A DNA stretch of 64,000 nucleotides, from assembly GCA_963815115.1 (NCBI GenBank), contig CAWFFN010000009.1, positions 1,728,001 to 1,792,000 of the forward strand, written 5' to 3'. A model generated the notes under the pieces. The model was not told the DNA's origin and did not search any database. It was given only the letters and a program-made list of their open reading frames with translations. Within the stretch, counting starts at the first letter, position 1. Each line of letters begins with the position of its first letter. This document shows, one piece after another, positions 10,879 to 19,790 of the stretch. This DNA is from an uncultured delta proteobacterium (GTDB lineage Bacteria; Desulfobacterota; Binatia; DP-6). The position numbers and the translations under genes are program-made.

Positions 10879-12399
10879 CTACCCCGCTGCGTGCAGCGTG
10901 CGGCGGGTCGGATCCGCGGCCGGCGCGACCGGCGCACGATTGCCGAAGACGAGGGCGCCGTCCTCGAGCGGGCCGAGACGGATCATCTTCTTGTCCCGCG
11001 AGTAGTTCTGCGGGTTGATCCAGGGCTCGCGGTCCCCCTGCTTGGGGAAGCGGTGCATCACCCGTTGCATGTAGCCGGACGAGAACTGGTCGATCCAGGG
11101 GCGGGGCGGCATGTCGCGGTCCGTGTCGCGCAGCCGCGGCGTCACCTGGCGCACGCCGCTCTCGTCCATGTGGTTGATGAGCCGGCAGGCGTATTCGGCG
11201 GTCAGGTCCGCCCGGAGCGTCCACGAGGCGTTGATGTAGCCGAACGTGGAGATCAGGTTCGGCACGCCCGAGTACATCATGCCCTTGTAGGTCCACGTCT
11301 GCGCGAAATCGACGGGCGCGCCGTCGACCGTGAACCGCATCTCGCCGAGCACCACGAGGTTCAGGCCCGTTGCGGTCACGATGATGTCGGCGTCCAGCTC
11401 CCTGCCGGACGCGAGCGTGATGCCCGTCTCGGTGAAGCGTGCGATATGGTCCGTGACGATCGACGCCTTGCCGGACCGGATTGCCTCGAACAGATCGCTG
11501 TTCGGCACGAGGCAGAGGCGCTGGTCCCAGGGGTTGTACCGGGGCGTGAAGTGGGTGGCGACATCGTAGTCCGGGCCGAGCTCCTTCCTCACCATGTCGA
11601 GGAGCTTTCGCTTGACCTGCGCGGGATGGGTACGCGTGCGGCGGTACAGGAGCTGCTGCAGCGCGACGTTCTTCCAGCGCGTGACGGCGTAGGCCCAGCG
11701 GTCCGGCAGCACCCGGCGCAGCGCGTTCGCGATCACGTCGGTGTCGGGCCGGGACACCACGTAGGTCGGCGAGCGCTGCAGCATGATGATGTGGCCGGCG
11801 TCCCGCGCCATCGCGGGCACGAGCGTCATCGCCGTCGCCCCGGAGCCGATCACCACCACCCGCTTGCCCCGGTAGTCCAGATCGTCCGGCCACTGCTGGG
11901 GATGGACGATGGTGCCCTTGAACCGCTCCAGGCCCTCGAACTCGGGCGTGTGGCCCTGCCGGTAGCTGTAGTAGCCCGCGCACATGAGGAGGAAATTGCA
12001 GGTGAAGCGGACGCTCTCGCCCGTGTCCGCCCGCAGCGTCTGGACGGTCCAGGCGGCATCCTCGCTCGACCAGGCGGCCGCCGTCGCCCGGTGCTCGTAG
12101 CGGATGTGCTCGTCCACGCCGTACTCGGCGGCGGTCGCCTTCACGTAGTCGAGGATCGAGGAGCCGTCGGCAATGGCCTTCGCCTCGCGCCAGGGTTTGA
12201 AGCTGTAGCCGAGCGTATGCATGTCGCTGTCCGACCGCACGCCCGGGTAGCGGAAGAGATCCCACGTGCCGCCCATGGCTGGGCGACCTTCCAGGATGAC
12301 GTAGCGCTTGTCCGGGCAGGCCCGGTGCAGATGAACGGCGGCTCCCACTCCGGACAGGCCGGCGCCCACGATGAGTACGTCGAAGTGTTCCGTCGCCAT
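10879..12399 (-). CDS. ethA: FAD-containing Baeyer-Villiger monooxygenase (EthA-like)
   Basis: GAGLSG, GGTWDLFRYPGVRSDSD, FKGTIVHPQQWP, IGSGATA, PRYNPWDQRLC. Confidence 0.85.
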   Translation of the reverse strand: MATEHFDVLIVGAGLSGVGAAVHLHRACPDKRYVILEGRPAMGGTWDLFRYPGVRSDSDMHTLGYSFKPWREAKAIADGSSILDYVKATAAEYGVDEHIRYEHRATAAAWSSEDAAWTVQTLRADTGESVRFTCNFLLMCAGYYSYRQGHTPEFEGLERFKGTIVHPQQWPDDLDYRGKRVVVIGSGATAMTLVPAMARDAGHIIMLQRSPTYVVSRPDTDVIANALRRVLPDRWAYAVTRWKNVALQQLLYRRTRTHPAQVKRKLLDMVRKELGPDYDVATHFTPRYNPWDQRLCLVPNSDLFEAIRSGKASIVTDHIARFTETGITLASGRELDADIIVTATGLNLVVLGEMRFTVDGAPVDFAQTWTYKGMMYSGVPNLISTFGYINASWTLRADLTAEYACRLINHMDESGVRQVTPRLRDTDRDMPPRPWIDQFSSGYMQRVMHRFPKQGDREPWINPQNYSRDKKMIRLGPLEDGALVFGNRAPVAPAADPTRRTLHAAG

Positions 12400-12626
12400 G
12401 TCGCTTTTCATCCTCACCTGTCGGACCTCAGCTGTCGCACGCATCCAGGAGGCTCGTCCATCCTGCAGACGACCCCAGGAAGCGGTCTGGGGACCGTAGC
12501 GCGGATGTCTCCCACAGGGAAGCAACGATACGGCCGTCACCCGGCCGTTGCCCCCGTCACGGCGTGGCGCTAAAGGTCCGGCGGTGAGCGTCGTGCGAGC
12601 GAGCGCTCGCGAGGAGGTGGCGATTC

Positions 12627-13073
12627 ATGCCGAAGAAGGTACGACCGATCCCCAAGGGTTATCACGCGGTCAGTCCGTCGCTGACGCAGGACGACGCCGG
12701 GCAGACGATCGAGTTCTGCAAGAAGGCGTTCGGCGCGAAGGTGCTCATGCGGATGCAAGGGCCGAGCGGCAAGATCATGCACGCCGAGGTCCTGATCGGT
12801 GACTCCATCGTCATGCTGAACGACGTGATCCAGGAGCCGGCCCAGGCGGCGAACCTCTTTCTCTACGTCCAGGATGTCGACAAGACCGTCGCCCGAGCGA
12901 GCAAGGCCGGGGCGACGGTCCTCATGCCGCCGCAGGACATGTTCTGGGGCGACCGCTTCGGTCGGATCCAGGATCCCTCGGGCAACCGGTGGGGCATCGC
13001 GACGCACCGCGAGGACGTGCCCCCGAAGGAGATGAAGAAGCGCGCGGCGGCGGCATTCTCGGCCGCGGGATGA
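12627..13073 (+). CDS. VOC/glyoxalase (PhnB-like) protein
   Basis: PIPKGYHAVSP...IMHAEVLIGDS...DMFWGDRFGRIQDPSGNRW; GAGGAGG RBS. Confidence 0.9.
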   Translation: MPKKVRPIPKGYHAVSPSLTQDDAGQTIEFCKKAFGAKVLMRMQGPSGKIMHAEVLIGDSIVMLNDVIQEPAQAANLFLYVQDVDKTVARASKAGATVLMPPQDMFWGDRFGRIQDPSGNRWGIATHREDVPPKEMKKRAAAAFSAAG

Positions 13074-13287: not shown

Positions 13288-13303
13288 CGGCATGGAGCTT
13301 GCT
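13288..13303 (+). promoter_or_regulatory. Putative sigma54 (-24/-12) promoter of the transhydrogenase operon
   Basis: CGGCATGGAGCTTGCT has GG-N10-GC spacing and the TTGCW element; it lies just upstream of the GGAG RBS and ATG 13331. Confidence 0.55.
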
Positions 13304-13330
13304 GCCACCCCAGGAGCCACGGAGATGCAG

Positions 13331-14500
13331 ATGCCAGGGCCGCAACGAGATCCGCTGACGATCGCGGTTCCGAGAGAGATTGCGCCGGGCGAGCACCGCG
13401 TGGCGCTGACGCCGGATGCGGCCGCCGCGCTGGTCAAGGCCGGGATGAAGATCGTCATCGAGACGGGGGCGGGCGCCGGCGCGTTCCATTCCGACGCCGC
13501 CTTCGAGAAGGCTGGCGCGCGCATCGCGCCCGACGCGGAGGCGCTCTATGCAGGGGCGGACGTCATCCTCAAGGTGCAGAAGCCCGCGCCTGGTGAAGTG
13601 AGCCGGCTGCGCGAGAACGCCGTGCTGGTGGCGTTCCTGCAGCCGCTCACGAGCCCAGACCTCGTGCAGCAGCTGGCCGATCGACGGGTCACCGGCTTCG
13701 CCATGGAGGCGATCCCCCGCATCAGTCGTGCGCAGAAGATGGACGCGCTGTCGTCGCAGGCCAACATCGCCGGCTACAGGGCGGTCCTCATCGCGGCCGA
13801 GTCGCTGGCGAAGTTCTTTCCCATGCTCATGACGGCGGCCGGTACGGTCTTCGCCGCCCGTGTGCTCGTGATCGGCGCTGGCGTGGCCGGACTGCAGGCG
13901 ATCGCAACGGCGCGCAGGCTCGGAGCCCAGGTCTGGGGCTACGACGTCCGACCCGCGGTGAAGGAGCAGGTGGAGAGCCTGGGCGCGAAGTTCCTCGAAT
14001 TCGACCTGCGCATCGCCGACGCCGAGGACAAGGGTGGCTATGCGACGGCGCTGTCCGAGGACACGGGCCGCCGGCAGCAGGAGATGCTCGGCGAGAAGAT
14101 CCGGGACTTCGACGTGGTCGTGACCACGGCGCTGGTCCCCGGCAGGCCCGCGCCGCGCCTGGTCACGAAGGAGACCGTCGCGGGGATGCGGGCCGGCTCG
14201 GTGATCGTCGACGTCGCCGCCGAGGCCGGCGGCAACTGCGAGCTGACCGAGCCCGACAGGGTGGTCGTCACGCACGGCGTGACCATCCACGGCCCGACCA
14301 ACCTGCCCGCCACGATGCCGGTGCACGCCAGCCAGCTGTACGCGCGCAACGTGACGGAGCTGCTCAATGAGCTCGTCAAGGACGGTGCGCTGGCGCTCGA
14401 CTTCGACGACGAGATCATCAAGGCCGCCTGCGTCACGCACGCCGGGGCGGTCGTCAGCCAGGCGGTCCAGGCCGCGCTGGCGGCGGGCAAGCCGGCATGA
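13331..14500 (+). CDS. pntAA: NAD(P) transhydrogenase subunit alpha part 1 (domain I)
   Basis: EHRVALTP, RAQKMDALSSQANIAGY, FFPMLMTAAGT, GAGVAGLQAIATARRLGA, GGNCE. Confidence 0.95.
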   Translation: MPGPQRDPLTIAVPREIAPGEHRVALTPDAAAALVKAGMKIVIETGAGAGAFHSDAAFEKAGARIAPDAEALYAGADVILKVQKPAPGEVSRLRENAVLVAFLQPLTSPDLVQQLADRRVTGFAMEAIPRISRAQKMDALSSQANIAGYRAVLIAAESLAKFFPMLMTAAGTVFAARVLVIGAGVAGLQAIATARRLGAQVWGYDVRPAVKEQVESLGAKFLEFDLRIADAEDKGGYATALSEDTGRRQQEMLGEKIRDFDVVVTTALVPGRPAPRLVTKETVAGMRAGSVIVDVAAEAGGNCELTEPDRVVVTHGVTIHGPTNLPATMPVHASQLYARNVTELLNELVKDGALALDFDDEIIKAACVTHAGAVVSQAVQAALAAGKPA

Positions 14501-16317
14501 CGAGCGAGCTCGAAGTCGGCCTCTACATCTTCATGCTGGCCGGGTTCCTCGGCTATCATCTCATCACCCGCGTCCCGCCCCTCCTGCACACGCCGCTCAT
14601 GTCGGCGACCAACGCGATCGCGGCGATCTCGCTGGTCGGCTCGCTCGTGGTGGCGGGCAGCGACTACAGCGACGTTCCGAACGGCTGGGTGTGCACGCTT
14701 CTCGGCTTCGTCGCGGTGACCTGCTCGTCCACGAACGCCATCGGCGGCTTCCTGATCACCGACCGCATGCTGCGGATGTTCAAGACCGCGGAGGAGCGCG
14801 CGCGAGGGATCCGGCGCCCGGTCGAGCTGCAGGCGGCCGGCTTCGTGCTCGCCGTCTTCGGCGCCGTCGCGGCCCTCCTCTACTGGACGAAGCCTGCCGG
14901 GATGGCGATGGGGGACTACCTCCGCGATTACGTCGCCCCCGAGGCGCTGCGCTACTGCTACATCCTGTCGGCAGCGATGTTCGTGCTCGGGCTGAAGGGC
15001 CTGAGCTCGCCCAAGTGGGCGCGTTCGGGAATGGCGCTGGCGGCGTTCGGGATGCTCATCGCCGTCGTGGGCACCCTCTTCCACCCGCACATCGTGACGT
15101 ATCGATGGATCGCGCTCGGCTTCACGATCGGGGCCGTGGTCGGAGGCACGATGGGTCTCCGCATCCCGATGACCGCAGTGCCGCAGCGCACGGCCCTGTC
15201 GCACTCCCTGGGGGCGCTCGCTGCCTGCCTCGTGGGTATCTCCGAGTACTTCCGCTACCAGGGGGCGCTCGGCCGCGTGACGCTGACGGCGCTCGTCTTC
15301 GAGGTCGTGATCGGCGGTCTGACCTTCGCGGGCAGCCTGATCGCAGCGGCCAAGCTCCAGGAGCTGCTGCGCGGGCGGCCGATCACGTACCGCGGCCAGA
15401 ACGTGATCAGCCTGACCCTGCTCGGCATCATCGTCGCCTCGGGGGTCCACCTCGTCGTCACGCAGGCGGCGACGCCGTTCTTCTACGTGATGGTCGCGAT
15501 GTCGCTGATCTTCGGCCTGCTGCTCGTCATCCCGATCGGTGCCGCCGACATGCCGGTGGTGATCGCGCTCCTCAACTCGTACGGCGGGCTCGCCGACGCC
15601 GCGATGGGCTTCGTGCTGATGAACAAGATCCAGATCATCACGGGCTCGCTGGACGGGACCTCGGGGTTCCTGCTCGCGCTGCTCATGTGCCGTGCGATGA
15701 ACCGCTCGGCAGTGAACGTGCTGTTCGGCGCATTCGGCAGGGTGTCGGAGGATGCGGTGGCGGCCGCCGCCGAGGCGAAGGGCACGGTGCGCAGCATCGC
15801 GCCCGAGGAGACGGCCGTCCTCTTCGAGACGGCCCGCAACGTCGTGATCGTACCCGGCTACGGGATGGCCGTCGCGCAAGCGCAGCACGCGGTGGCCGAG
15901 CTGGGCAAGATACTGAAGGAGCGCGGAGTCGACGTGAAGTACGCCATCCATCCCGTCGCCGGACGGATGCCGGGCCACATGAACGTGCTCCTGGCCGAGG
16001 CCAACGTCCCCTACGAGCAGCTCGTCGAGATGGAGGCGATCAACCCGTCCTTCCCGGAGGCCGACATCGCGCTCGTCGTGGGCGCCAACGACGTCACCAA
16101 CCCCGCGGCCAAGAGCAACAAGTCGAGCCCCCTCTTCGGCATGCCCATCCTGGAAGTCGACCGCGCGAAGTCCATCATCGTGCTGAAGCGCAGCATGCGT
16201 CCGGGCTTCGCCGGTGTCGACAACGACCTGTACTACGACGAGAAGTGCATGATGCTCTTCGGCGACGCCAAGGACAGCGTCACCAAGCTCATCACCGAGA
16301 TGAAGTCGCTGCTGTGA
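14497..16317 (+). CDS. pntB: Fused NAD(P) transhydrogenase alpha part 2 and beta subunit (PntAB-PntB)
   Basis: N-terminal LHTPLMSATNAI...TDRMLRMFK (PntAB), a linker, then the beta motifs SHSLG, GAADMPVVIALLNSY, AMNRS, VPGYGMAVAQAQH and HPVAGRMPGHMNVLLAEA, all in one 606-aa frame. ATGA overlap with pntAA. Confidence 0.92.
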   Translation: MTSELEVGLYIFMLAGFLGYHLITRVPPLLHTPLMSATNAIAAISLVGSLVVAGSDYSDVPNGWVCTLLGFVAVTCSSTNAIGGFLITDRMLRMFKTAEERARGIRRPVELQAAGFVLAVFGAVAALLYWTKPAGMAMGDYLRDYVAPEALRYCYILSAAMFVLGLKGLSSPKWARSGMALAAFGMLIAVVGTLFHPHIVTYRWIALGFTIGAVVGGTMGLRIPMTAVPQRTALSHSLGALAACLVGISEYFRYQGALGRVTLTALVFEVVIGGLTFAGSLIAAAKLQELLRGRPITYRGQNVISLTLLGIIVASGVHLVVTQAATPFFYVMVAMSLIFGLLLVIPIGAADMPVVIALLNSYGGLADAAMGFVLMNKIQIITGSLDGTSGFLLALLMCRAMNRSAVNVLFGAFGRVSEDAVAAAAEAKGTVRSIAPEETAVLFETARNVVIVPGYGMAVAQAQHAVAELGKILKERGVDVKYAIHPVAGRMPGHMNVLLAEANVPYEQLVEMEAINPSFPEADIALVVGANDVTNPAAKSNKSSPLFGMPILEVDRAKSIIVLKRSMRPGFAGVDNDLYYDEKCMMLFGDAKDSVTKLITEMKSLL

Positions 16318-16479: not shown

Positions 16480-19400
16480 ATGTACGACCGGCCAGTCGAC
16501 TCCAAGCCCCAGCCATTCAGCCGGCAGACGGTGGCGAAAACGTCCCGGCTCCGCGGGGCAACGGTCACCGAGAGCGTCTGCCCGTACTGTGCCGTCGGCT
16601 GCGGCCAGCTCATCTACGCCAAGGGCGGGCAACTCATCGACATCGAGGGAAACCCAGAAGCCCCATCAACGAGGGCACCCTGTGCCCGAAGGGCGCGAAC
16701 GCCTTCCAGCTCGCCGTCAATCCCCACCGCGTCACGCAGGTCCTCTACCGAGCACCGTTCTCCGATCACTGGGAGACCAAGCCGCTCGACTGGGCGATGG
16801 ACCAGATCGCCGACCGGGTGAAGGCCGCGCGGGACGCGGACTTCACGGGCCGCAACGAGGCGGGCCGCCTGCTCAACTCGGTGCGCAGCATCGGCACCCT
16901 CGGCGGGGCGACCATCGACAACGAGGAGAACTACCTCATCAAGAAGCTGTTCGGTGCCGGGCTCGGCGTGGTGTCGATCGAGAACCAGGCCCGGATTTGA
17001 CACTCCGCTTCGGTGCCCGGTCTGGGCGCCTCGTTCGGCCGCGGCGCGGCCACCACCTACCAGCAGGATCTGGCCAACAGCGACTGCATCCTGTTCATGG
17101 GCTCGAACATGGCGGAAGCCCACCCCGTGGGTTTCCGCTGGCCGATGAAGGCCAAGGAGAAGGGTGCGACGTTGATCCACGTCGACCCCCGCTTCACACG
17201 CACGTCGGCGCTGTGCGACGTCTTCGTGAACATCCGCGCGGGCAGCGACGTCGCCTTCCTCGGTGGGCTCGTGAACTACGTCCTGAGCAACGACCGCTGG
17301 TTCCACGAGTACGTCCTCAACTACACCAACGCGTCGACCATCATCCTCGGGGGCTTCAAGGACACCGAGGATATGGCGGGGCTGTTCAGCGGGTACAGCG
17401 GGGACGGAGAGAGCGGCACGTACGACGCCGTGGAGGGACACTGGGGCTACGACGGGTGCGGGGATGGAGCTGGTCCCGCAGGGAGCGGTCAGCGGCCCCG
17501 GTCGAGGATGCTGAAAGGAGAGCACGGGATTCAAGGTCACGACCTCGACGTGGGAGGCCTCTCGCACTCCGGGCAGCGCCGGCACATGACGACGCACCCG
17601 GACGGCGAGCTGCCGCACGACCCGACGTTGCAGCATCCGCGCTGCGTCCTCCAGATCCTCAAGCGCCACTTCGCCCGGTACACGCCGGAGGCCGTCTCCG
17701 AGGTGTGCGGCTGCACCCCGGGCGAGCTCGTGCGTGTGGCGGAGATCCTCTGCGCCAGCTCCGGGCGCGAGCGGACCTGCTCCATCGTCTATGCGCTGGG
17801 GTGGACGCAGCACACCACGGGCGTCCAGATGATCCGCACCGCCGGCATCCTCCAGCTGCTGCTCGGAAACATGGGCCGGCCGGGCGGTGGGATCATGGCC
17901 ATGCGCGGCCACTCCACCATCCAGGGCTCGACCGATCTCGCGACCCTGTACGACGTGTTACCGGGCTACCTGCCGCAGCCGGCCGCCGATGAAGAGCACG
18001 AGACGCTGGCATCCTACGTCGAGCACGAGGGCCTGCCCACGGGCTACTGGGTGAACTTCCGCAAGTTCATCGTGAGCCAGCTCAAGGCCTGGTACGGCGA
18101 CGCCGCGACGGCGGAGAACGACTTCGCCTTCTCGTGGCTGCCGCGCGTGGACGGCGACTACTCGCAGCTGCTGTACTTCGACCGGATGGCGCGTGGCGGG
18201 GTCACGGGCTACTTCCTCTTCGGGCAGAACCCCGGCGGCGGCGGGCCCAACGCCGGTCTGCACCGGACGGGCCTGCGCAACCTCGACTGGCTGGTGGTCC
18301 TCGACTGGTTCGAGACCGAGAGCGCGGTCTTCTGGAAGAACGACCCGAACGCGCCGCGGAGCGACGAGATCAAGACCGAGGTCTTCTTCATTCCCGCGGC
18401 CGCGTCACCGGAGAAGGAGGGCAGCCTCACCAACACCCAGCGGATGCTCCAGTGGCACGAGAAGGCCATCGACCCGCTCGGCGACTGCCGCTCGGACGCG
18501 TGGTTCGTCTACAACCTGGGCAAGCGACTGAAGCAGCTCTACGCCGGCTCGGCCGACCCGAAGGACCAGCCGTTGCTCCACCTCACGTGGGACTACGACT
18601 TCGACGAGCGCCCGCGCCTGCCCGACGGCACGCTCAGCCGGATCGAGGGCGAACCGGATCTGGAGAAGGTGCTCCAGGAGATCAACGGCTGTCATCTGCA
18701 CGAGATCGACCCGCGCACCGGCCGGCCCCGCCTGGCGGCCAGCTTCGCCGAGCTGCAGGACGACGGCTCGACGGCGTCGGGCTGCTGGATCTACACCGGC
18801 GTCTTTCCCGACCCGGGCCGCAACCGGGCGCGCGAGCGCACGCTCACCGACAACCCCCTCCAGCCCGAATGGGGCTTCGCGTGGCCCGACAACCGCCGGA
18901 CGCTCTACAACCGCGCCTCGGCAGATCCCGACGGGCGGCCGTGGTCCGAGCGCAAGAAGCTCGTCTGGTGGGACGAGGAGTCGCGCCGCTGGGTGGGCCT
19001 CGATCGGCCGGATTTCGAGCCGGAGAAGCCGCCGGACTACCGCCCGCCGCGGCATGCGACCGGCATGGCCGCCATCGCGGGCAACCAGCCGTTCATCATG
19101 AAGCCCGACGGCCGTGGCTGGCTGTACGCCCCCGGCGCCGTCAAGGACGGCCCGCTGCCGACCCACTACGAGCCGGTCGAGTCGCCGGTGGGCAACCTGC
19201 TCTATCCGAAGCAGACGTGCAGCCCGACGGTGCGGACGTTCGAGGGACCGCTCAACCACCTCGCTCACACTCCGACGGCGGAGTACCCGGTCGTGGCCAC
19301 CACGTTCCGCCTCACCGAGCACTACCTGAGCGGGCCGATGAGCCGCTTCAACAGCTGGCTCAACGAGCTGCAGCCGGAGATGTTCGTCGAGCTGAGCCCG

Positions 19401-19790
19401 GAGCTGGCCGCCGATCGCGGCATCGCGCACGGCGGCTGGTTGACGGTCGAGTCGGCACGGGGCCGGATCGAGGCTCGCGCGATGGTGACGCGGCGGTTGC
19501 GGCCGCTGCTGGTCGAGGGCCGCACCGTCCACCAGGTCGGCCTCCCGTTCCACTGGGCTTTCGCCGGCGAGGTCGTCGGCGGCAACGCCAACGACCTGAC
19601 CTCGCTGGTGGCCGACCCCAACGTGAGCATGCACGAGGCGAAGGCGTTCGCCTGCCAGATCCACGCCGGCCGGCTGGACGGCCGCACGCCGACTCCGACG
19701 AAGAGCCCGGCGCCCTGGCCGACGCGCGACCCGGTCCCCGACACGCCGGCAGCCGCCCAGCCGGAAGGGAGGCTCGGCCGTGGCAAGTAA
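16480..19790 (+). CDS. fdhA: Selenocysteine-containing formate dehydrogenase alpha subunit (Mo/W-bisPGD); one apparent frameshift near 16655
   Basis: CPYCAVGC...GTLCPKG Fe-S motif; ENQARI-[TGA 16998-17000]-HSASVPGLGASFGRGA matches the FdnG active site NQARV-U-H; MGSNMAEAHP, RGHSTIQG, FRLTEHY. Confidence 0.92.
16998..17030 (+). promoter_or_regulatory. Bacterial SECIS element
   Basis: TGA, an 11-nt spacer (CACTCCGCTTC), then the hairpin GGTGCCC-GGTCT-GGGCGCC. This is the same geometry and GGTCT apex as the E. coli fdhF SECIS. Confidence 0.88.

Follow-up and report, generated by a model that had tools for sequence, protein, structure and literature searches.

A bacterial NAD(P) transhydrogenase locus with a free domain I and a fused alpha2-beta chain carrying an extra predicted membrane helix

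Genes and domains at the locus

We analysed a 64,000-nucleotide stretch of DNA (the window; contig CAWFFN010000009.1, positions 1,728,001 to 1,792,000) from the genome of a soil bacterium, in which an NAD(P) transhydrogenase is spread over two forward-strand genes, 13292-14500 and 14497-16317. The first encodes a free domain I (dI); the second joins the alpha2 (PntAB) and beta (PntB) parts in one polypeptide, with a hydrophobic linker segment between them. The features are listed here in window coordinates (TM, transmembrane helix; NNT, the mitochondrial enzyme).

13292..14500 (+): pntAA, free dI (NAD(H)-binding); open reading frame (ORF) of 402 aa; Pfam, NCBIfam
14497..14500 (+): ATGA overlap of the pntAA stop (TGA) and the fused-gene start (ATG), read from the sequence
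14497..16317 (+): gene encoding alpha2, the linker helix and beta as one chain; 606 aa followed by a stop, none internal
14497..14784 (+): alpha2 part, residues 1-96, with three predicted membrane helices corresponding to TM2-TM4; PNTB_4TM, phmmer, AlphaFold2
14785..14946 (+): linker, residues 97-150, made up of a basic, putatively cytoplasmic stretch, a predicted membrane helix and a short polar stretch into TM6; no counterpart in split relatives
14821..14886 (+): predicted extra membrane helix, residues 109-130, analogue of NNT TM5; hydrophobicity, AlphaFold2
14947..15726 (+): beta membrane part, residues 151-410, with nine predicted helices corresponding to TM6-TM14 and with H236, D351, N360 and R403; PNTB, phmmer against 4o9u_B and 9l76_C, AlphaFold2 helices from 138-168 to 377-400
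15727..16314 (+): hinge (residues 411-430, low predicted local distance difference test score, pLDDT) and domain III (dIII, NADP(H)-binding, residues 431-606); phmmer, VIA-align, AlphaFold2

The original prediction, made from the sequence of the window, described a free PntAA, and this is what the upstream ORF encodes: Pfam places AlaDh_PNT_N at residues 26-160 (E 1.2e-47) and AlaDh_PNT_C at 164-389 (E 2.2e-68). The product scores 445 bits against NCBIfam model PRK09424 (cut-off 383) and covers model positions 2-372 of 510, so the C-terminal membrane part of the model is missing from it. Translation of pntAA may really begin at an internal ATG, since homologues show no alignment before about residue 22; for the dI genes of relatives, the alignment to pntAA begins at residues 15-24. 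The ATGA overlap with the fused gene, found in identical form in six of eighteen related fused loci (see below), suggests translational coupling of the two genes.

As predicted, the end of PntAB reads into beta without a stop. The 606-aa chain carries both PNTB_4TM (PF12769; residues 9-96, E 2.1e-29) and PNTB (PF02233; residues 153-600, E 4e-174), and the two strings quoted in that prediction, TDRMLRMFK and AAGFVLAVFGAVAALLYW, are both found in it. Residues 1-96 correspond to positions 425-508 of the 510-position PntA model in NCBIfam and match the alpha2 subunit of Thermus thermophilus in phmmer (4o9p_C residues 8-93, E 6e-19), while dIII matches that of Rhodospirillum rubrum (1e3t_A) with an E-value of about 1e-71. 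Four beta residues said to be intact do align with their E. coli counterparts (9l76_C): counted along ungapped blocks of the phmmer alignment, H236 is equivalent to His91, D351 to Asp213, N360 to Asn222, and R403 to Arg265. Passages of PMC5742237, PMC5026163 and PMC13635403 describe these E. coli positions as channel or coupling residues.

The features of the PntAB/NNT family are thus found at this locus, namely dI, the helix bundles of domain II (dII), dIII, and the channel and coupling residues. Because all three domains are present and conserved, we read the chemistry as that of an ordinary proton-translocating transhydrogenase. The entire window genome (G000; 6.9 Mb, 12 contigs) contains one PNTB_4TM match, as does each of five other genomes with the fused form; the fused chain is therefore the sole source of alpha2 there.

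Distribution of the fused layout

A search of GTDB for such proteins had been proposed, and it found them. We ran a pattern scan in which a single genome stood for each GTDB species. At least eighteen (L008-L025) of the best 80 loci, taken from at least 599 stretches, encode alpha2 and beta in one ORF, two of them cut by contig ends. Their linkers are of the window's type, 41-53 aa long with a best 17-mer of Kyte-Doolittle (KD) hydrophobicity 2.18-3.56, and a dI gene lies directly upstream in sixteen of the eighteen. Sixty-one of the 80 loci are split, and one (L081) is fused with a different linker of 30 aa.

The eighteen come from metagenome-assembled genomes (MAGs) labelled Deltaproteobacteria, Candidatus Binatia, Syntrophobacteraceae, Phycisphaerae, Chlorobiaceae, Ignavibacteriaceae, Acidobacteria/Solibacteraceae, Gemmataceae, and Planctomycetia, with no cultured strain among these eighteen records. 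The two cultured genomes among the best 80, Frankia nepalensis and Pseudaminobacter sp., both carry the split form. One split locus (L043:2797-4767) has a beta ORF of about 657 aa.

Among forty relatives of the window genome, fifteen match residues 1-200 without stops (one of them only over 2-157, at a contig end). Thirteen of these fifteen are among the twenty-four genomes of the window's family, and two belong to other families of its class. In five of the forty the alpha2 and beta matches are separate, including one in the window's own genus. In that congener (G002, C5:183873-184305) the 4TM match is 57% identical and lies within a 729-aa open frame, and beta begins 17 nt downstream in another frame. 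The type of transhydrogenase therefore varies inside one genus.

We also surveyed three phyla using even samples of about 300 genomes each, with fused counts that exclude the genome centring the search:

Window's own phylum: any match in 23 of 301 genomes; fused in 1 (G006)
Phylum of G333 (MAG labelled Acidobacteria): any match in 148 of 301; fused in 3 (G375, G378, G394)
Phylum of G334 (MAG labelled Gemmataceae): any match in 132 of 301; fused in 1 (G660)

The tally of 148 takes in G386, a split form flagged as unpublished. The sequences of G378 and G660 confirm the fusion. Two further genomes, G918 and G662, were considered as helix-less fusions given the same open-frame size for both matches, and were rejected when the genes proved to be parted by an in-frame stop. 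Many genomes of the window's family share the layout, few others do, and the MAGs that have it bear the labels of several phyla.

All 120 homologues among the matches listed (83-91% identity, 594-607 aa) carry both Pfam domains, and their source name is 'subunit beta' only. Going by that name, one could mistakenly record PntAB (alpha2) as absent from a genome. A search of a representative library with residues 1-200 returned mostly fragments and frameshifted calls among the best 150 of 5402 matches, which amounts to no census of architectures. A search for longer homologues gave PntB-like proteins of 1068-1234 aa (P0271-P0278; 770-1096 bits, 37-40% identity). A search of the ESM Atlas gave generic PntB clusters and one mostly eukaryotic cluster of 576 aa with both domains. 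This cluster (rank 14) is 88% eukaryotic with Ascomycota as its commonest phylum, has PNTB in 100% and PNTB_4TM in 89%, and lists no dI domains; it could consist of cut NNT gene models or reflect a real split in fungi.

The linker and the predicted structure

The linker (residues 97-150, 54 residues) has exactly one hydrophobic peak, which agrees with the single hydrophobic segment claimed for a stretch of roughly 55 aa. The best 19-mer begins at residue 111 and has a mean KD of 2.03, among the strongest in the protein. In split relatives, matches to a 200-residue junction query stop at about residue 100 and restart at about 150, in another gene that lies a few bases further on; the linker therefore has no counterpart in them.

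We modelled the fused chain with AlphaFold2, with no templates, from an alignment of 100 rows in which fused proteins were combined with split beta subunits and alpha2 sequences (mean pLDDT 88.6; predicted template modelling score, pTM, 0.86). Three helices at 3-24, 28-54, and 63-93 correspond to TM2-4. Residues 98-103 form a short helix and residues 109-130 one of 22 residues, and nine more helices follow from 138-168 to 377-400. The model therefore has thirteen membrane helices (3+1+9), the number expected beforehand. Across hinge residues 411-430 the pLDDT is 51-59.

We then compared regions among seventeen full-length fused proteins (the window's and those of sixteen loci; the two cut by contig ends were left out). 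Mean pairwise identity is 80.1% in the alpha2 part (1-96), 74.5% in the beta membrane part (151-410), and 79.3% in dIII (431-606), but 16.7% in the linker (97-150). All seventeen keep one linker 19-mer with a KD of 1.89-3.12. Lys and Arg total 71 in the fifteen residues before the helix, compared with 35 in the fifteen after it. A tether that crosses the membrane, with its composition and orientation under constraint and its sequence free, would be expected to show this pattern, and the contrast between about 17% identity in the linker and 75-80% in its flanks points to a topological adaptor. The suggestion that the linker restores a topologically required crossing is borne out to the extent that a 22-residue helix is predicted and the charges are biased in this way.

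The hydrophobic segment could instead form a re-entrant or surface helix that does not cross the membrane, in a protein of some other topology or one that is inactive. Such an arrangement would suit a helix that is less confident than the others in the model and a topology that is predicted only. We give it a small chance, as the 19-mers of all seventeen proteins lie above the usual threshold for a membrane span, the Lys/Arg bias toward the preceding side is 2:1, and linker length is conserved at 41-53 aa. Flanking domains that are 75-80% conserved and channel residues that are intact would be unexpected in an inactive protein, and if the chain did not cross here, either dIII or the alpha2 helices would lie on the wrong membrane face. 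A crossing helix, as in the model, is the reading that we retain.

Phylogeny and relation to mitochondrial NNT

The original prediction left two options for the extra helix: it is either convergent with NNT or informative about the origin of NNT. We built a tree of the beta part with 81 rows, comprising seventeen fused proteins, L081, forty-eight split forms, and fifteen NNTs. Left out were L043 with its unusually long beta ORF, the two fused loci cut by contig ends, and twelve split loci whose beta gene is incomplete. The fused proteins form a monophyletic clade, which has a support of 100 in the Shimodaira-Hasegawa-like approximate likelihood ratio test (SH-aLRT), and is nested among split bacterial forms, with NNT far off. 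The approximately unbiased (AU) test, for which groups were set by architecture before testing, did not reject a grouping of fused proteins with NNT on these 81 rows, which lack Pseudomonadota (difference in log likelihood, delta lnL, 7.5; P = 0.285).

This result would allow the fused chain and mitochondrial NNT to derive from one fused ancestor, with the linker helix homologous to TM5 and the layout bearing on the origin of NNT. Similarities to NNT along the whole chain fit such a history as well: phmmer aligns the fused chain to ovine NNT in one stretch (query 11-598, chain 504-1076), and the top structural matches of the model are NNT chains. Within that phmmer alignment, however, the hydrophobic segment of the window protein faces gaps in NNT, and the window chain has neither TM1 nor a covalent dI. 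NNTs are 38-43% identical to the window protein, compared with 46-60% for bacterial split beta subunits.

Broader sampling further reduced the case for a shared ancestor. We sampled 251 genomes from the phylum of the Pseudaminobacter genome (Pseudomonadota) and found 48-54% identity between the NNT of a fish and the best of the two-gene alpha and beta loci there, over residues of about 51-1087, nearly the full length of this NNT. A homologue search with the NNT beta region against shorter proteins retrieved eukaryotic NNT fragments only, and no bacterial relatives. An enlarged tree added twenty-nine Pseudomonadota beta subunits and E. coli PntB, with one partial locus dropped. All fifteen NNTs fall inside a forty-two-row clade of two-subunit enzymes in this tree (SH-aLRT 99), and the grouping of fused proteins with NNT is rejected (delta lnL 245.6, AU P = 1.7e-62). 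We therefore consider common fused ancestry very improbable. The fused proteins form one clade among three-subunit enzymes, NNT sits among two-subunit Pseudomonadota enzymes, and with their grouping rejected the linker helix appears to be convergent with TM5. Of the two options, convergence has thus gained support and information on the origin of NNT has not.

The model also overlays well on ovine NNT, a fit that had been proposed as a check. With 6que_B the overlay has a Z-score of 48.9 and a root-mean-square deviation (rmsd) of 2.6 A over 388 residues (model 1-413, chain 451-848), and with 6qti_A it has a Z-score of 47.6 with 574 of 606 residues aligned. At most ten NNT residues are left unaligned within 451-848, so NNT TM5 must be matched by the linker of the model. 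The beta chains of E. coli and Thermus give lower scores (Z 36-37) and cover the model only from residues 146-148 on. Solved dII structures as a whole give Z-scores of 31-49, and crystal structures of dIII give 27-28 with an rmsd of 0.9-1.1 A (VIA-align).

L081, from a MAG labelled Armatimonadetes, represents a second type of fusion. The locus (L081:2480-4231) resembles that of the window in having a dI gene upstream and alpha2 and beta in one ORF, here of 584 aa, and differs in its shorter linker (YFLPVFLVAAVSTGGVDL...), whose best 17-mer has a KD of 1.76. P0190, a library fragment, has a similar linker. The beta part of L081 is only 53% identical to that of the window and groups among split enzymes of MAGs labelled Acidobacteriota. 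Placing L081 and the window-type proteins in one clade was rejected on the 81-row set (AU P = 0.003). We conclude that NNT, the window's clade, and the L081 type probably each acquired the extra helix independently.

Integrity of the fused reading frame

Mapping reads across the linker had been suggested as a test for a stop or indel. Contigs from public soil metagenomes match the linker DNA (14785-14946) with 0 differences, 0 gaps, and no indels, although the runs may include the window's source sample, in which case they are not independent of the assembly. Two contigs span the linker (X1 record 6, 14714-14953; X3 record 24, 14741-14963). The fusion is no artefact: a nearby formate dehydrogenase gene does have an apparent 1-nt frameshift, so the assembly may hold indel errors, and some library proteins (P0189, P0223 and other two-stretch matches) resemble alpha2 and beta annotated as a single protein without the helix, but we give a lost stop or frameshift between genes that are really separate a negligible chance, since split forms have no counterpart of the approximately 50-residue linker, so that stop loss cannot yield the fused ORF, and since the architecture recurs in 120 of 120 listed homologues and in eighteen independent GTDB genomes and the public-run contigs are identical.

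Comparison with known transhydrogenases

Passages of PMC5742237, PMC7614955, and PMC13635403 cover transhydrogenases built from one, two, or three chains as well as a form with inverted beta-alpha order, and the last of these includes an engineered beta-alpha fusion of the E. coli enzyme. Three-gene and two-gene pntA/pntB operons are distinguished in part of a recent preprint (bioRxiv 10.1101/2025.11.04.686620).

One close match to the window's enzyme is the three-subunit PntAA/PntAB/PntB type of Thermus thermophilus (4O9U, 4O9P, 5UNI) and Rhodospirillum rubrum, with which it shares a free dI, a three-helix alpha2 (TM2-4) without TM1, and a nine-helix beta with dIII. Thermus beta matches the beta part of the window in phmmer (E 9e-115) and in the overlay (Z 36.2, rmsd 1.6 A). 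The difference is that alpha2 and beta are not separate in the window: they form one polypeptide with a 54-residue linker and thirteen predicted membrane helices rather than twelve. The channel His also lies in the beta part, as does E. coli His91, whereas the aligned position in Thermus beta is Asn. A passage of PMC5742237 assigns the role in Thermus to His42 of alpha2.

Mitochondrial NNT (ovine 6QTI, 6QUE, 6S59) is a single chain with fourteen membrane helices. Like the window chain, it has one extra helix between TM4 and TM6, and a passage of PMC5026163 gives TM1 and TM5 as the extras of the human enzyme. It differs in carrying dI and TM1 in the same chain; in the window dI has a gene of its own, and the linker comes after only three helices. 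The description of the helix as 'mitochondrial-style' therefore holds as an analogy and fails as kinship, the window chain being without NNT's TM1 and covalent dI.

The two-subunit PntA/PntB of E. coli (9L76) belongs to the same family and has the same channel residues (beta-part overlay Z 36.9). Its gene boundary falls between TM4 and TM6, with dI fused to TM1-4; that of the window falls between dI and TM2, with no TM1. An engineered E. coli enzyme, reportedly made by Meuller et al. in 2001 (BBA 1506:163), has alpha and beta linked through fused transmembrane helices. Both that enzyme and the window's join alpha to beta by a membrane-spanning linker, and theirs is artificial.

The idea that the architecture might prove common and already characterised was not supported. 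It is frequent only in the window's family, and we found no description of a fused alpha2-beta layout in the full-text literature searched, a scope outside which lie subscription journals, including older phylogenetic surveys of the family. An earlier mention is possible, and the architecture is visible in domain annotations. One candidate text, PMC4916218, was set aside because its 'fused' refers to a fused-silica column. The layout is real, conserved, and apparently undescribed, in an enzyme of otherwise ordinary transhydrogenase function.

Interpretation

The two genes very probably encode a working proton-translocating NAD(P) transhydrogenase of an undescribed layout, in which a soluble dI acts with one alpha2/helix/beta/dIII chain, and in which the fusion arose once within bacterial three-subunit enzymes, independently of TM5 and of L081. 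The first gene would supply the soluble dI and the second a chain made up of an alpha2 piece (TM2-4), the extra helix, a beta piece (TM6-14), and dIII. With the alpha2 C-terminus cytoplasmic and the beta N-terminus periplasmic, a covalent join needs one more membrane crossing, and the extra helix would provide it. As a topological adaptor this helix would keep its hydrophobicity and length and not its sequence. Catalysis and proton coupling would follow the pattern of the Thermus and Rhodospirillum three-subunit enzymes. What the fusion would mainly offer is a set ratio of alpha2 to beta and a membrane domain that assembles more stably. After a single origin, separate from those of NNT TM5 and the L081 type, the fusion would have come to be found in several phyla today.

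Several points weigh against this interpretation. Helix 109-130 is the least confident membrane helix of the model, with a pLDDT of 67-82 over its 10-residue blocks, and topology, assembly, and activity are all predicted. The overlay of this helix on TM5 is derived from aligned ranges and counts, not residue by residue. No dI gene was found within 2.5 kb upstream of two of the fused loci, L010 and L018. Counts from the GTDB scan are lower bounds rather than a census, and MAG labels may be wrong, on which the cross-phylum spread and any horizontal transfer depend. The grouping with NNT stood on the 81-row set, and its rejection depends both on the enlarged sampling and on 'quick' trees made under LG+G4. 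Finally, a metatranscriptome run (X19) matches only at 90-95% likeness over parts that are conserved in relatives, and so gives no evidence about transcription either way.

More tentatively, we lean towards a wider view in which the membrane parts of alpha and beta were joined at least three times (in eukaryotic NNT, the window's clade, and L081), each time through one helix, unconstrained in sequence and inserted at an equivalent position. On this view TM5 would serve purely as an adaptor, with no part in proton conduction, and the window's clade would since have moved between phyla by horizontal transfer. If so, the bacterial chain offers comparative evidence that the extra mitochondrial helix is needed for topology and not for chemistry, because its bacterial counterpart appears to be independent and keeps its hydrophobicity and length while drifting in sequence.

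If the interpretation is correct, the locus adds a further natural layout to the one-, two-, and three-chain and inverted forms. It would also provide a natural enzyme with a free dI and a single dII-dIII chain in which to test how tethering affects the alternating movements of dIII. Binding of dI to dIII is textbook knowledge. Structural studies could find a handy sample in a membrane domain that is stable as a single chain and has a detachable dI, and a sample of the fused enzyme would help with the question, raised in a passage of PMC13635403, of how enzymes without a covalent dI link keep dI attached.

Neighbouring genes

Upstream of the transhydrogenase lie genes for a flavin-binding monooxygenase-like protein (10879-12540, -) and a small glyoxalase/VOC-family protein (12627-13073, +). 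Downstream, at 16480-19790 (+), is a gene for a formate-dehydrogenase-type molybdopterin catalytic subunit (Pfam Molybdopterin and Molydop_binding). It contains an in-frame TGA at 16998-17000, in the context ENQARI-TGA-HSASVPGLGASFGRGA, which resembles the usual selenocysteine site of such enzymes. The reading frame of its N-terminus shifts at about 16655-16660 (+), beside a short A-run, with the Fe-S motif (CPYCAVGCG...IDIEGNPE) in one frame and the continuation (SPINEGTLCPKG...) in another. The change may reflect an indel in the assembly or a genuine frameshift.

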